Positions 38,822 to 44,653 of a stretch of 64,000 nt of DNA are shown here, one piece after another (position 1 is the first letter of the stretch; each line of letters opens with the position of its first letter). The position numbers were made by a program, and so were the translations under genes. Below the pieces are notes generated by a model. The model saw only the letters and a program-made list of their open reading frames with translations. It did no database searches and had not been told where the DNA came from. The stretch lies in the NCBI RefSeq assembly GCF_055900595.2, contig NZ_CM148325.1; one strand, given 5' to 3'.

Positions 38822-38889
38822 TGTAAAAAGTCGCTGATATGGACTGCCCCCCATAAAGTTGGACAGTTCAGGTTAAGCGGCTTTTTACA
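38822..38889 (+). terminator. Putative ompL terminator (long imperfect palindrome)
   Basis: tgtaaaaagtcgct ... aagcggctttttaca inverted repeat followed by T-run. Confidence 0.5.
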
Positions 38890-39025: not shown

Positions 39026-39874
39026 ATGGAAAAGAAATTTTTTATGGATTGGGATAATGAAATCCCGCAAGAAGAGTTTATTAACAATATTTTAGCCGAT
39101 GAAGACCTGCCTAAAATCCGCTCTCTGATTATTGGTCGTTGGGGGGAGTGCTGGGATGAGGAAAGTTGCCAACCAATAATCGACATGTTTGTTGAACATG
39201 CCGAACGCTTTGCTCATCTCGAATCCCTATTTATCGGCGATATGGAAAGCGAAGAGTGTGAAATTTCGTGGATAAAACAAGGGGATTATTCTCGTCTGTA
39301 TGCTGCGCTGCCGAACCTCAAAAAGCTGACAATTAAAGGTACTCAGGGCCTGGAACTGGGAGAAATCGCCCATGACAAACTGGAGCATCTGGAAATTATC
39401 TCTGGCGGTACGCCGTGTGACGTGTTCGCCTCATTGCAAAATGCCCAACTGCCTGCGTTAAAAACACTTATCGTTTATATTGGCGTTGAGAATTATGGTT
39501 TTGATGCATCGCTGGATATCGTAATGAAGCTGGCGTCGAAATCCCTCTTCCCGAGCCTGACGCATCTTGGCCTGGTGAACAGCGAAGAGCAAAACGAAAT
39601 CGTCCGCCGCGTGCTGGAAAGCGACATTCTGCCGCAACTGGAAGTGCTGGCACTCTCCTGCGGTACGCTTACCGACGAAGGTGCAGAGCATCTTCTCAAA
39701 CATGCCGATCGCCTTAGCCATCTGAAACTGCTGGATTTGTACCATCATTACCTGACAGAAGAGATGCAGAAAAAACTGCAAAAAACACTGACATGTACTC
39801 TCGAATTATCAGAAGCGCTAACGCCTGAAGTCTATGATGACGAAATTTATATGCATGCGATGTATACCGAATAA
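39026..39874 (+). CDS. Cytoplasmic repeat-rich helical protein, LRR-like (282 aa); first gene of accessory six-gene operon
   Basis: Repeated L-x-x-L-x-L segments; no signal peptide; SD aagga; I believe it corresponds to an uncharacterised Salmonella 'STM4015'-type family (unverified). Confidence 0.55.
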   Translation: MEKKFFMDWDNEIPQEEFINNILADEDLPKIRSLIIGRWGECWDEESCQPIIDMFVEHAERFAHLESLFIGDMESEECEISWIKQGDYSRLYAALPNLKKLTIKGTQGLELGEIAHDKLEHLEIISGGTPCDVFASLQNAQLPALKTLIVYIGVENYGFDASLDIVMKLASKSLFPSLTHLGLVNSEEQNEIVRRVLESDILPQLEVLALSCGTLTDEGAEHLLKHADRLSHLKLLDLYHHYLTEEMQKKLQKTLTCTLELSEALTPEVYDDEIYMHAMYTE

Positions 39875-39934
39875 ATGACATTTATTGGGAGAGAGTCATC
39901 TCTCCCATTATTTATCACAGAAAAGGAATTCTTC

Positions 39935-40921
39935 GTGATTACGCTAATTGGTCATCCTGAAAGCAAACGCACATTTTATTTTTGCCAGGCAGCGTCACGC
40001 TTACAGGAACATATCAACGTAGTGAGCTATGATCAAGCACTTACCCTGCTCTTAAATAAAGGCATGGTAAAAATCGATCCCCCCTTACATCAGGAAACAG
40101 ATATTCGCTTAATTAATACGGTTAGCCAAAACTATATTACTTTTTTACAAAAAATGGCTACCAGAAGGGAGATCCGTTTTATTAACTCACCAGAAGGTAT
40201 TATTCATCTTCTGGATAAACGCCACTGTAAGCAACGATTAGTCGAACACGCGATCCCGACACCGCCAATATTAGCGGATGATATCCGTAGCTACGATCAA
40301 CTGATCGCCTGTATGCGCAGCGAAAAGGTTTATCGCGTGTTTATTAAGCCGAATTTCGGATCAGGGGCCGCCGGGGTGCTGGCTTTGAGTCTACATCCCG
40401 GCGATAACCGTCAGGTGCTTTATTGCGCCATCCAGGTTGCAGGTGACAGGCTGGTGAACAGTAAACATATTATCCGCTATGAAAACAGCGGTGATATTAC
40501 GTTGATTGTGAATGCTATTTTACAACAAGACAATATTATCGAACGCTGGCTGGCAAAAGCCAGAGTGGGCAATAAAAGCTACGATTTACGCATCGTGTAC
40601 GTTAATGGTGAAATCGTCTGGCGGGTTGTCAGAACATCATCACAGCCGATCACCAATTTACATTTACAAAATGAAGCTATCCGTTTTGCCGATCTTAATT
40701 TACCCGTAGAAAAAGTAGCTGAAATTGATACGCTTTGTCTCAACGCCATGACCCTCTATCCGGACGTACACATTGCCGGGCTTGACGTATTACTCACGCA
40801 AAATTTAACACCCTATATTATCGAAATTAACGGCCAGGGCGATCTTATTTATCAGGACACCTGCGAAAAAAACAAAATTTATCAACGCCAGATTCAGGTA
40901 ATGAGAGAACATCATGTATAA
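39935..40921 (+). CDS. ATP-grasp-like protein (328 aa from GTG 39935; alternative ATG 39875 would give 348 aa)
   Basis: Fold guess from RimK/glutathione-synthetase-like features (KPNFGSGAAGV glycine-rich loop, ...IIEINGQGD); SD aaggaa precedes GTG. Confidence 0.5.
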   Translation: MITLIGHPESKRTFYFCQAASRLQEHINVVSYDQALTLLLNKGMVKIDPPLHQETDIRLINTVSQNYITFLQKMATRREIRFINSPEGIIHLLDKRHCKQRLVEHAIPTPPILADDIRSYDQLIACMRSEKVYRVFIKPNFGSGAAGVLALSLHPGDNRQVLYCAIQVAGDRLVNSKHIIRYENSGDITLIVNAILQQDNIIERWLAKARVGNKSYDLRIVYVNGEIVWRVVRTSSQPITNLHLQNEAIRFADLNLPVEKVAEIDTLCLNAMTLYPDVHIAGLDVLLTQNLTPYIIEINGQGDLIYQDTCEKNKIYQRQIQVMREHHV

Positions 40922-41786
40922 CGTAACAGACGAAGTACCGGAAAATACCCGCACGGCAATCCATTCCTGCGATGGCGAAATCAATCTGAATGATTTAATT
41001 GCCAGGGAAGCCAATATCCTGTTTGTGGTGCTTGATTCCCTGCGTTTTGATATTGCGTTTCAGGAACAAGAGGCGGGAAATACACCAAATATTAACCGCT
41101 ATGGTCGCTGGATAAAGTGTGAAGCCGCTGGCAATTTTACCTGGCCTTCGCATCATTCGATGTTCTCTGGTTTTATGCCTAAGCCGCTGGAAGCTGCACC
41201 TGGTCATTCAATGCTCTTTTTCCCGAAAGATATTGGTTTAGGTCGTTTAGGGCCAAAAAATGCGTTCGCGTTCAGCGAAGAGACGTGGATTAAAGGGCTG
41301 GAAAACAAAGGTTACCGCACTATCTGCGTGGGTGGCGTCTCCTTTTTTAATAACCGCTCAGGGATGGGAAAAGTGTTCCCGGCGATGTTTAAAGAGAGTT
41401 ACTGGTATCCTAATTTCTCCTGCACGGTGAAAGAGAGCATGGATAATCAGCTCACCTTAATTAACAAAAAGGTGAACGCTGAACAGCCGCTGATGATGTA
41501 TATCAATATCGACACCATTCATTATCCGAATCATTTTTATATTGAAAATGCCAAACCTGGCGATACGGTAGAAACTCACGCCGCTGCCCTGCATTATATT
41601 GATGCCAGAATCGAAAAACTTTTCGATATCTTTCGGCAAACCGGGCGGGAGACGTTAGTTATTCTCTGTTCCGATCATGGCACCTGCTACGGGGAAGACG
41701 GTAAATATTTCCACAGTTTTAACCATCCGATTGTGAATACCGTACCCTATTTTCACTTTGTGTTAGACGGCAAAGACCATGAATAA
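40914..41786 (+). CDS. Alkaline-phosphatase-superfamily metallohydrolase-like protein (290 aa)
   Basis: N-terminal VVLDSLRFD metal-ligand-like motif and C-terminal LCSDHG motif; 8-nt overlap with upstream gene. Confidence 0.5.
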   Translation: MYNVTDEVPENTRTAIHSCDGEINLNDLIAREANILFVVLDSLRFDIAFQEQEAGNTPNINRYGRWIKCEAAGNFTWPSHHSMFSGFMPKPLEAAPGHSMLFFPKDIGLGRLGPKNAFAFSEETWIKGLENKGYRTICVGGVSFFNNRSGMGKVFPAMFKESYWYPNFSCTVKESMDNQLTLINKKVNAEQPLMMYINIDTIHYPNHFYIENAKPGDTVETHAAALHYIDARIEKLFDIFRQTGRETLVILCSDHGTCYGEDGKYFHSFNHPIVNTVPYFHFVLDGKDHE

Positions 41787-43017
41787 TGAATCGATTTATC
41801 AGCAATATATGTACAGTTACCCGCATAAGACCGCTTATCGGGAATTAAACAATATTGCTTTTGCGGATGTGAAATCGCGTATTTACGAGCATAAAACACA
41901 TCTCTATATTCATATGCCTTTTTGCCAGAGCCGCTGCGGGTTTTGTAATCTCTTTACCTGCACGGGGGCAGACAATGCCTTTATCGACAACTACATAGAA
42001 GCAATTATTATCCAGGCCCGGCAAATGCAACTTGCGCCTGTAGACTGGGCCAGTTTTACCATTGGCGGCGGTACGCCACTACTGCTTAATACCGGGCAAC
42101 TGTCACGGTTGTTTCGCGGGGTGTTTGACGAATTACAGGTCGATGCGCAGATTTTTAAGGCAATTGAAACATCGCCTTCCGATACCACCGCCGAAAAGGT
42201 CGCGTTATTGCGCCAGCTTGCGGTAAACCGCGTCAGTATTGGCATTCAGAGTTTTAACGATCTGGAACTTGCCACATTACACCGCCGCCATAGTGCGGAA
42301 AATGCCCATCGGGCGCTGGAGCTACTGCGCAGGGGTAATTTCCCGATAATCAATATTGATATTATTTACGGTATTCCTGGTCAAACAGCCGCAAGTTTAA
42401 TGGCGTCGCTTAATCAAGCATTAGATTATCAGCCTGACGAACTGTTTCTGTACCCGCTATATAACATGCCGCGTCAGCCGGATATGTATAGCCTCTATAT
42501 TGAAGCCCGCGATCGCTTATTGCATGAAGGTTATACGCAAACGTCAATGCGCCGTTTTGTGCGGGTGAATAATGATTCGGCGGCTGAAAGTTGTGGCTTT
42601 GAAAATTCGCTGGCGCTTGGCGCGGGCGGGCGCAGTTATCTTGGCAATTTACATTACTGCACGCCGTGGTCGCAAAACCAGCCCGCATCGCGGCAAATTG
42701 TCACGGATTTTATCGCCCGGCCAGATAAGACCCAGATTCACCACGGCTATGTACTTTCACAAGCAGAAATGAAGCGGCGTTTTATTATCAAGAATCTCTT
42801 TTTCTATAAGGGGCTTTCGTTACGGGATTATCAGCACCAGTTCTTCTCTGAGGTATTAAGCGATTTTCCCCTGCTGGGCGATTTCATCAAACAAGATTAC
42901 TGCCACCAGCAGGATAATCGTATTCTGCTCACCGCGCAGGGTTTAGCGCTTTCGGACCAGCTTGGCCCGCTGTTTATCTCCCCGGAAGTTCGCAGGCTGG
43001 AGACGCATAAACGATGA
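41779..43017 (+). CDS. HemN/HemW-like radical SAM enzyme (412 aa)
   Basis: CQSRCGFCNLF (CxxxCxxC) at 41923-41946 near N-terminus; length and layout like the HemN family, which includes class C radical SAM methyltransferases. Confidence 0.65.
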   Translation: MNNESIYQQYMYSYPHKTAYRELNNIAFADVKSRIYEHKTHLYIHMPFCQSRCGFCNLFTCTGADNAFIDNYIEAIIIQARQMQLAPVDWASFTIGGGTPLLLNTGQLSRLFRGVFDELQVDAQIFKAIETSPSDTTAEKVALLRQLAVNRVSIGIQSFNDLELATLHRRHSAENAHRALELLRRGNFPIINIDIIYGIPGQTAASLMASLNQALDYQPDELFLYPLYNMPRQPDMYSLYIEARDRLLHEGYTQTSMRRFVRVNNDSAAESCGFENSLALGAGGRSYLGNLHYCTPWSQNQPASRQIVTDFIARPDKTQIHHGYVLSQAEMKRRFIIKNLFFYKGLSLRDYQHQFFSEVLSDFPLLGDFIKQDYCHQQDNRILLTAQGLALSDQLGPLFISPEVRRLETHKR

Positions 43018-43871
43018 CGCTCAAGCAGATCCAGACGCTGATTTATCGCGGCGAGATAAAGTCGTGTAATTATCGCTGTGGTTATTGCCCTTTTCATAAA
43101 CAAGACCGCAATGATAAACAGCAGGATGAAGTGGCATTATGGCGCATGGTTGAACATTTACCGGCGCAGGGTTCACCATTAAATGTATTTATTACGCCCT
43201 ACGGCGAAGCATTGCGTTATCGTTATTATATGGCGGCGATGGCGGAAATCAGCCGCTATTCCCATGTGCAGGCGGTGGGTATTCAGACCAACGCCTCTTT
43301 TAATTTATCCACCTTAGTCGCGACTTTTCAGCACTCTCAGGGCGATTTAGCAAAGCTGCGGCTGTGGTGTTCGTTTCATCCTTCCCAGGCAAGTAAAGAA
43401 GTTTTCCTTAAACAGTTACTGGCAATTAAGGACACGGGGATTACCTGTTCTGTGGGGGCCGTCGCCAGCGTAGCCGACTATGACGAATTACAGTGGTTAC
43501 GCGCGCATCTTCCTCCCGATATCTATTTCTGGCTAAACGCCAATGAGCGCGATAAAAGGCCCACCAGCGACGAAAGAAATAGCCAGTTTCAGTTGCTGGA
43601 CCCGCTTTATTATCTGGAAACCAGCCTCTGGCCTGCCAATGTCGAGTTTTGTCTGGGCGGCAAAAAGAGCGTGTTTATGAATGCTGATGGCGATCTCTTC
43701 GCCTGTAATATCAGCAAAATTAAGATTGGCAATTTATATCAACAGCAACTTTCATCTCCGTCTTGTATGTCCAGGCACTGTCACTGTTATCTGGCTTATC
43801 ACCTGCGTGAGGATATTCCGGCCCTCTCACAATTTGATGCTGAACGCTGCTTTCGGATCTTCTCGTTATGA
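43014..43871 (+). CDS. Small radical SAM enzyme (285 aa)
   Basis: CNYRCGYCPF (CxxxCxxC) at residues 18-25; additional C-terminal Cys cluster SPSCMSRHCHC; ATGA overlap with upstream gene. Confidence 0.6.
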   Translation: MTLKQIQTLIYRGEIKSCNYRCGYCPFHKQDRNDKQQDEVALWRMVEHLPAQGSPLNVFITPYGEALRYRYYMAAMAEISRYSHVQAVGIQTNASFNLSTLVATFQHSQGDLAKLRLWCSFHPSQASKEVFLKQLLAIKDTGITCSVGAVASVADYDELQWLRAHLPPDIYFWLNANERDKRPTSDERNSQFQLLDPLYYLETSLWPANVEFCLGGKKSVFMNADGDLFACNISKIKIGNLYQQQLSSPSCMSRHCHCYLAYHLREDIPALSQFDAERCFRIFSL

Positions 43872-44563
43872 TCTGGCGGTTAATCGCGCTCGATTTAGAC
43901 GGCACATTGCTGAACAGCAAGAAGATGATTTCCCCTGCGTCTGTTTCGGCACTGCAAAGCGCACAACAGGCAGGTGTGAAAATTATCCTCGCCACCGGAC
44001 GTTCGCACAGCGAAGCCCTGCCTTATTACCAACAATTGCAGTTAACCGAGCCGATGATTTGCTGTAACGGCAGCTATCTTTATCATCCGCGCCAGCGGCA
44101 AATATTGCGTCCGCTGGCGCTTGATATCCACAAGGTGGAAAGGCTACGACTCTGGTTTTCACAACAAATATTGCAGCCAAATATTTATACGTACGATGAT
44201 TTTGTTTTGCAGATTAGCCTGATACACCGCAAGGCTTCGTTATTGCGCCAGACAGAGGAATTTGCCCGACAAGAATTATCGCTGGCCTGTAGCTGGTCCT
44301 GGCATCATCAACTGGATATTACACAGGTGGGGTGTGAGAAAGGCAAAAGTCTGGCCTGGTATGCCCGACAGCAAAATATCGTGCTGGATGAAATCATCGC
44401 CTTTGGCGATAACGATAATGATGCGGGGATGCTGCGGATGGTAGGCAAAGGGATTGCGATGGGCAATGGCAGTTCGCTGGCAAAAGTCAGTGCTGACCGC
44501 GTTATTGGTCACAACAACACAGATGCTATTGCGGATTTTCTTGATGCGCAGGGTTTCAGATGA
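43868..44563 (+). CDS. HAD-superfamily (Cof-type) phosphatase (231 aa)
   Basis: Motif I LIALDLDGTLL; motif GDNDNDAGM near C-terminus; ATGA overlap with upstream gene. Confidence 0.7.
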   Translation: MIWRLIALDLDGTLLNSKKMISPASVSALQSAQQAGVKIILATGRSHSEALPYYQQLQLTEPMICCNGSYLYHPRQRQILRPLALDIHKVERLRLWFSQQILQPNIYTYDDFVLQISLIHRKASLLRQTEEFARQELSLACSWSWHHQLDITQVGCEKGKSLAWYARQQNIVLDEIIAFGDNDNDAGMLRMVGKGIAMGNGSSLAKVSADRVIGHNNTDAIADFLDAQGFR

Positions 44564-44605: not shown

Positions 44606-44636
44606 CAAAAAACCTGCCATCGCTGGCAGGTTTTTT
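44606..44636. terminator. Bidirectional intrinsic terminator (six-gene operon and bipA)
   Basis: A-run, hairpin cctgccatcgctggcagg, T-run. Confidence 0.75.
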
Positions 44637-44653
44637 ATGACTAAAAAACGAAA

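Follow-up and report, generated by a model that had tools for sequence, protein, structure and literature searches.

The spacer between the first two genes of a six-gene E. coli operon specifies a sense-strand RNA stem-loop, a real and fairly ordinary regulatory element in an untranslated region, whose stem, on comparison of related loci, is under selection as a structure and has been kept by compensating mutations. The same comparison places the start of gene 2 beyond the hairpin, at GTG 39935 with its own Shine-Dalgarno sequence AAGGAA, and not at ATG 39875. The most likely role of the stem-loop, to which we give about an even chance, would be to form and protect a 3' end, helped in E. coli by leaky termination, such that gene-1 mRNA is raised over that of the coupled enzyme genes.

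The window analysed, a 64,000-nt stretch of E. coli DNA, carries the operon at a locus between ompL and typA (Table 1). The operon is accessory: of 5426 complete E. coli genomes, 157 carry the locus. The product of gene 1 scored 323 bits against the NCBIfam profile NF038076 (cutoff 275), in agreement with the RefSeq annotation of identical DNA. This STM4015 protein is homologous to PDB 2ra8 (E=1.6e-71), which is itself uncharacterised, and 'scaffold' as a label for STM4015 is only a guess. Neighbouring genes from gene 2 through gene 6 overlap by 4-8 nt each and a single strong terminator follows gene 6, which bears out the six-gene operon proposed in a first-pass annotation of this DNA. The junction between gene 1 and gene 2 is the sole uncoupled junction of the operon. 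A search of the literature on expression of the operon found nothing.

Table 1. Features of the operon and of its first intercistronic spacer, in window coordinates.
Feature	Position	Strand	Remarks
Gene 1, STM4015-family repeat protein	39026-39874	+	282 aa; stop TAA 39872-39874
Intercistronic spacer	39875-39934	+	60 nt, untranslated; frame open here only by accident
ATG adjoining the gene-1 stop (TAAATG)	39875-39877	+	Non-conserved; not the conserved gene-2 start
Hairpin 5' arm	39886-39894	+	TGGGAGAGA; from folding and covariation
Hairpin tetraloop	39895-39898	+	GTCA; varies by lineage: GUAA, UACA, UGCA, UGCG, CCUG
Hairpin 3' arm	39899-39907	+	TCTCTCCCA; from folding and covariation
A/U-rich tail	39908-39918	+	TTATTTATCAC; 6 U in first 8 nt; terminator-like in E. 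coli only
Shine-Dalgarno AAGGAA of gene 2	39923-39928	+	6 nt from GTG start
Gene 2, STM4014-family ATP-grasp protein	39935-40921	+	328 aa; start GTG 39935
Gene 3, STM4013/SEN3800 sulfatase-like hydrolase	40914-41786	+	
Gene 4, STM4012 HemN-like radical SAM protein	41779-43017	+	
Gene 5, STM4011 radical SAM protein	43014-43871	+	
Gene 6, Cof-type HAD hydrolase	43868-44563	+	
Strong bidirectional terminator hairpin	44606-44637	.	Operon end, between gene 6 and typA

The whole hairpin (TGGGAGAGA-GTCA-TCTCTCCCA, 39886-39907) contains nine perfect pairs and a 4-nt loop, and its 22 nt fold with an energy of -15.2 kcal/mol. A perfect 8-bp stem had been reported at 39887-39906; those coordinates proved correct, with core arms GGGAGAGA (39887-39894) and TCTCTCCC (39899-39906) flanking the loop GTCA (39895-39898), and one more pair, T39886-A39907, makes nine. 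The positions given earlier for TAA (39872-39874), ATG 39875 and GTG 39935 were all confirmed as well, as was the Shine-Dalgarno sequence AAGGAA (39923-39928). The hairpin pattern matched once in the window and in none of 100 shuffles. Perfect hairpins with a stem of at least 9 bp and a loop of 3-8 nt numbered ~1.8 per 64 kb in dinucleotide shuffles, and the real window gave 23 such matches (~12 distinct hairpins). Arithmetic from the dinucleotide shuffles puts the chance of a perfect hairpin of at least 9 bp in a given 60-nt spacer at ~0.002. For the 101-nt region around the hairpin, the z-score of the folding energy was only -1.94. We regard thermodynamics alone as unconvincing for this hairpin; the strong evidence against chance lies in comparative covariation.

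Four stem types were distinguished in the homologous spacers. The main E. coli type is GGGAGAGA-GUCA-UCUCUCCC; in E. coli strain 2017-02-2CC its place is taken by AACAGGAGAUG-GUAA-CAUCUCCUGUU as RNA (AACAGGAGATG-GTAA-CATCTCCTGTT in the DNA). The Salmonella type is GGGGAAUG-(UACA/UGCA/UGCG)-CAUUCCCC, with 14 pairs in locus L092, and the Superficieibacter type is GGGGAAUG-CCUG-CAUUCCCU. Pairs were counted in nine distinct, loop-aligned sequences from E. coli, Salmonella and Superficieibacter, a narrow comparative set of three genera and four stem types; Salmonella locus L091, a G·U variant from an assembly with many broken genes, was left out of the counts. Every cell of the eight core pairs across the nine sequences formed a standard pair (72/72), and five of the eight core pairs had changed on both sides, that is, in a compensatory manner. 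The covariation score was 0.58 versus 0.27±0.05 in shuffles, a value reached by 0 of 500 shuffles, and control registers slid by 1-3 columns placed only 43-60% of cells in pairs. RNAalifold, applied to an independent MAFFT alignment of the whole spacers, returned the hairpin helix as the only consensus structure. Among the other E. coli lineages sampled, spacer substitutions and one indel were confined to the loop and the 5' flank and left the stem untouched. Since the loops are variable between lineages, the stem is the constrained part; the variable loops argue against sequence-specific recognition. The closing pair in Superficieibacter is G·U, for which the opposite strand would give A·C, and this points to action as sense-strand RNA.

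A scan of metagenomes with the DNA pattern added only E. coli variants, together with two chance matches (L096 and L098). The 2017-02-2CC allele is accompanied by a divergent, evidently recombinant STM4015 3' end, with the recombination breakpoint at the 3' foot of the hairpin. Identity as a REP/BIME, MITE or other dispersed repeat was rejected, the element occupying one site per genome and occurring only in the 157 operon-carrying genomes, and an Rfam scan of the E. coli and Salmonella spacers returned noise only (E>=0.067, far below gathering scores). We attach next to no credence to the view that the stem is a chance palindrome or a functionless neutral remnant, such as the relic of an inserted element; the number of hairpins expected by chance in 64 kb and the energy z-score of the region would allow it, but it has to contend with at least five independent compensatory pair changes, with core pairing of 100%, and with an element that occurs once per genome, without a match to any repeat family.

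RefSeq begins the STM4014 gene at the GTG in three E. coli lineages, and position 2 of the NF038074 profile aligns with residue 23 of the long open reading frame, which is residue 3 counted from GTG 39935. Seventeen aligned homologues (37-94% identity) all start with M-x-x-LIG at the GTG position, and the same start is given by the family profile together with ~80 homologues. The codon at this position reads ATG in Superficieibacter and in the distant locus L009, and an AAGGGA/AAGGAA motif is kept at the same site in all enterobacterial loci. ATG 39875 is in frame with GTG 39935-39937 and has no Shine-Dalgarno sequence 5' of it. The corresponding codon is ACT in strain 2017-02-2CC, in which the hairpin loop also contains an in-frame TAA, and ATA in LF82-type E. 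coli, with its 59-nt spacer; in Superficieibacter the frame is closed by a stop four codons 5' of the gene-2 ATG. An in-frame upstream start codon is absent in these three lineages. Because the spacers compared measure 51, 52, 54, 59 or 60 nt, the frame is not conserved, and a short RiPP-precursor-like peptide ORF within the spacer was rejected because it has no conserved frame.

Two alternatives had been left standing by the first-pass annotation: that gene 2 starts at ATG 39875 and is translated through the hairpin, or that it starts at GTG 39935 and the hairpin is intercistronic. Conservation of the hairpin versus that of the 20 intervening codons had been set in advance as the test. The 20 codons were not conserved in homologous loci and the stem was kept through compensatory changes, results that together place the gene-2 start at GTG 39935 and identify the hairpin as a selected intercistronic RNA structure. 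The second alternative, which matches the RefSeq start and an unconserved spacer frame, is favoured, and the first lost its ground. It would be a considerable surprise if gene 2 began at ATG 39875 through termination-reinitiation at TAAATG, with the hairpin simply part of the codons of a 20-residue N-terminal extension. This strain and the L002-type lineage have an open frame, the ATG adjoins the stop codon, and upstream ATGs are picked by some gene callers in Salmonella; however, the Salmonella 'ATG' sits within its own hairpin and encodes unrelated residues, the spacer lengths do not keep to multiples of three, LF82-type E. coli, 2017-02-2CC and Superficieibacter have no in-frame start codon, and the family profile and the ~80 homologues begin at the GTG position. 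As a conserved feature the ATG 39875 start is refuted, and it could at most give a minor reinitiation product in this strain.

The gene order STM4015, 4014, 4013, 4012, 4011 is common to Clostridia, and this order is ancient. A scan of genome contigs returned mostly Firmicutes, with Salmonella and E. coli representatives not among the matches listed. The first junction measured -4 to +19 nt in 61 of 78 non-enterobacterial loci, gene 1 and gene 2 abut or overlap in most Firmicutes relatives, and the closest non-enterobacterial relative, L009, has a 2-nt gap at this junction. Given these short junctions, the hairpin spacer appears to have been added in enterobacteria, where it separates gene 1 from the coupled remainder of the operon, and spacer and hairpin together are specific to enterobacterial loci.

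The terminator scan flagged the hairpin with nine pairs, five G-C pairs and the tail TTATTTATCA. Intrinsic terminators have a G+C-rich stem of ~5-14 bp with a short loop, and that was found here (9 bp, 5 G-C, 4-nt loop); an uninterrupted U-tract conserved with the stem was not, since the E. coli tail UUAUUUAU is interrupted. U residues make up 6 of 8 nt in the E. coli tail and 2-4 of 8 in Salmonella, L007 and Superficieibacter; the Salmonella tails TACTCACC and CCCTGTTC contain 2-3 U in 8 nt, and the stem there is equally conserved. A hairpin without a U-tract is inefficient at intrinsic termination. The hairpin thus answers to the definition of an intrinsic terminator only partly. Between stop codon and stem lie 11-12 nt in E. 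coli and 6-12 nt across lineages; in Salmonella L092 the stem reaches the stop codon and only 1 nt is left on its 5' side. On its other side the stem ends 27 nt before the GTG, clear of the ribosome-binding site, so it is not a translational occluder. No conserved promoter was found between the stem and gene 2, in the 27 nt available. Because this gap is too short to hold a conserved promoter for genes 2-6 and the tail is U-rich only in E. coli, the hairpin can hardly be an efficient terminator.

Several other features of the spacer were considered. An internal promoter (TTGGGA ~17 nt before TTATTT, in E. coli) was rejected: it was unlisted by the scan and, by eye, not conserved in 2017-02-2CC or Salmonella. 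An alternative structure, in which the pyrimidine-rich 3' arm would pair with the Shine-Dalgarno sequence further on, was dropped, as it would involve at most 3-4 bp and was unpredicted by RNAfold. Single-sequence folds contain a second, weak A/U hairpin with the GGA of the Shine-Dalgarno sequence in its loop and CAC paired with the GTG; in Superficieibacter it is CAT that pairs with the ATG. This weak hairpin is absent from the RNAalifold consensus.

As a 3'-end-forming and protecting element, the stem-loop would provide, 11-12 nt past the gene-1 stop, a structured and nuclease-resistant 3' end for the gene-1 part of the mRNA. One route would begin with an endonucleolytic cut, either within the A/U-rich stretch or at a point beyond it, after which 3'-to-5' exonucleases would trim the RNA back to the stem; a second route, in E. 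coli, would have some polymerases terminate at the interrupted U-tract. By either route gene-1 mRNA would outlast or outnumber the mRNA of genes 2-6, which would be read from read-through transcripts and translationally coupled via their 4-8 nt overlaps. We infer both this molecular role and its effect on the balance between gene 1 and the genes that follow. Two properties expected of a 3'-protective structure were observed, namely a stable stem-loop in an untranslated gap directly 3' of a cistron and conservation of the structure in orthologous operons (E. coli, Salmonella and Superficieibacter). In malE-malF and other operons, structures of this kind stop 3'-to-5' exonucleases once an endonuclease has cut, which makes the upstream cistron the more abundant one (PMC5927463). 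The hairpin resembles that of malE-malF in being a stable intergenic stem-loop directly after the 5'-most cistron (PMC5927463), in being conserved among enterobacteria, and in having downstream genes on the same promoter. It differs in that the mal element is a REP (BIME) with hundreds of copies, whereas the present hairpin is single copy, shorter (8-11 bp) and of unrelated sequence. We conclude that the hairpin is a further example of a known element type, nearest to the malE-malF protective structures, and introduces no new mechanism class. Against 3' protection it counts that 8-9 bp is rather short for a stem that has to stop exonucleases robustly, that the comparative set is narrow, and that the anatomy of the hairpin also suits a leaky attenuator or a hairpin protecting the 5' end of the downstream mRNA.

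The first of these would make a translation-sensitive, leaky intrinsic terminator the primary function, with termination at the hairpin and U-tract unless a ribosome on the gene-1 stop, 6-12 nt upstream, blocks closure of the stem; enzyme expression would then be tied to gene-1 translation. We consider this unlikely, though it is the main rival to 3' protection. Ribosomes repress terminators at close range, 10-15 nt of free RNA being needed (PMC4824070), and the E. coli hairpin, which the terminator scan flags and whose tail has 6 U in 8 nt, resembles the leaky intra-operon terminators described in that study in its G+C-rich stem, 4-nt loop and U-rich tail. As in ribosome-repressed terminators, the stop codon lies within range of interference with hairpin closure, 11-12 nt upstream in E. 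coli and 6-12 nt overall (PMC4824070). Unlike in those terminators, the U-tract of E. coli is broken by other bases and Salmonella lacks one, and the stem is conserved equally in both. A broader proposal, that the stem-loop works as a regulated switch and not as a passive barrier, either as a ribosome-sensing attenuator or as an RNA operator to which a product of the operon binds in autoregulation, strikes us as a long shot. In its attenuator version, termination or decay at the stem would depend on a ribosome at the gene-1 stop, and enzyme output would report on STM4015 translation. Were either version true, the switch would be a lineage-specific regulatory invention on an ancient, otherwise tightly coupled radical-SAM/ATP-grasp operon.

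Protection could also act on the other side of the cut. In papB-papA, RNase E cleaves upstream of an intercistronic hairpin, which then gives 5' protection to the downstream mRNA (PMC5927463); by analogy, RNase E would cut the A/U-rich stretch between the gene-1 stop and the stem, and the stem would cap the 5' end of the mRNA of genes 2-6, stabilising the enzyme transcripts instead of gene 1. The arrangement is similar to papB-papA in that the intercistronic hairpin follows an A/U-rich stretch, the single-stranded AUGACAUUUAUU adjoining the 5' side of the stem in E. coli, and papBA and other 5'-protective structures offer precedent (PMC5927463). Here, unlike in papB-papA, the upstream flank is very short, variable and unconserved (6-12 nt, and 1 nt in Salmonella L092), and we judge this possibility distinctly improbable. 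A perfect DNA palindrome in an operon without a known regulator might further suggest an operator bound by a transcription factor, or a protein-bound RNA hairpin, for instance one recognised by an autoregulatory STM4015. This is very improbable: lineages differ at half of the positions in the stem and throughout the loop with pairing kept, the variation extends even to E. coli strains with an otherwise shared genome, so that a specific binder would have to co-evolve, and the G·U pair of Superficieibacter breaks the palindrome in DNA.

Taken together, the value of the hairpin lies in an annotation fix and in a first hint of how an uncharacterised operon is regulated. It settles where the STM4014-family gene starts, some public Salmonella gene calls having a spurious upstream ATG. 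The spacer also offers a clean, small example of compensatory evolution in an RNA stem, seen even between strains of one species. The operon, which combines an LRR-like protein with an ATP-grasp enzyme, a sulfatase-like hydrolase, two radical-SAM enzymes and a HAD phosphatase, is widespread and wholly uncharacterised, and the uncoupling of its first junction in enterobacteria hints that the repeat protein may be needed at a different level than the enzymes.

In the homologous locus of E. coli 2017-02-2CC (L101), the segment corresponding to the terminal part (3') of STM4015 together with the conserved spacer hairpin is only 55–77% identical to the window, whereas identity rises abruptly to 98% from position 39919 onwards. 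This jump in the alignment indicates a recombination breakpoint that coincides exactly with the hairpin's 3' foot.

Single-sequence folds predict a second, weak A/U hairpin reaching from the spacer into the start codon, without RNAalifold support, in which the GGA of the Shine-Dalgarno sequence lies in the loop and the GTG start codon of STM4014 is paired with a CAC; the Superficieibacter counterpart pairs a CAT with an ATG start. The arrangement of this predicted hairpin recalls CsrA-type sites.

In some Lachnospiraceae, tandem 18-nt units, roughly GCATTGATTACRGAGTAA, fill the STM4015-STM4014 spacer. The STM4015 homologue of L009, the closest non-enterobacterial relative, is 361 residues long with an N-terminal WGR domain, and the following gene begins 2 nt past its stop codon. 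The STM4015 match to PDB 2ra8 (362 residues) is limited to residues 81–354, and thus 2ra8 also has approximately 80 extra N-terminal residues. In L031, a Clostridiales MAG, a 927-nt "gap" separates the best STM4015 match from STM4014; by eye, it looks to encode a second STM4015-like gene, which would represent a tandem duplication of gene 1.

Coordinates of features in the window and in homologous loci
Feature	Sequence	Position
Second spacer hairpin (predicted)	Window	39916-39937
Insertion in ompL terminator loop	Window	38841-38872
STM4013	Window	40914-41786
Cof-type HAD gene	Window	43868-44563
STM4015 3' end and hairpin, E. coli 2017-02-2CC	L101	614-1534 (window ~39741-39918)
18-nt tandem-repeat spacer	L033	~928-998
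18-nt tandem-repeat spacer	L038	~1007-1133
18-nt tandem-repeat spacer	L051	~2439-2522
Gap between STM4015 match and STM4014	L031	1424-2352
STM4015 homologue with WGR domain	L009	1913-2998
Frameshifted STM4015, E. coli Z0117EC0005	L001	4727-5574
STM4014 with internal deletion, Salmonella	L092	3001-3849

Among the other genes of the operon, the Cof-type HAD protein is 231 residues long (244 in the Salmonella orthologue) and matches Cof and pyridoxal-phosphatase profiles of 256–272 positions in two stretches; it seems to lack part of the cap region. For the Salmonella LT2 orthologue of STM4013, PMC3844500 lists an internal sigma-54 binding site from ChIP-chip, antisense to the gene. Some strains carry a decaying operon: STM4015 has a frameshift in E. 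coli Z0117EC0005, a strain otherwise identical to the window, STM4014 is reduced to 282 residues by an internal deletion in one Salmonella lineage, and the operon genes are fragmented in another Salmonella assembly (L091).

Upstream of the operon, the window lineage differs from other E. coli (L002) by a 32-nt insertion, GGACTGCCCCCCATAAAGTTGGACAGTTCAGG, within the loop of the hairpin that forms the ompL terminator (AAAAAGCCGC...GCGGCTTTTT), and by a C-to-T substitution in its 5' arm. The terminator may be weakened in the window lineage, in which case read-through from ompL would be possible.
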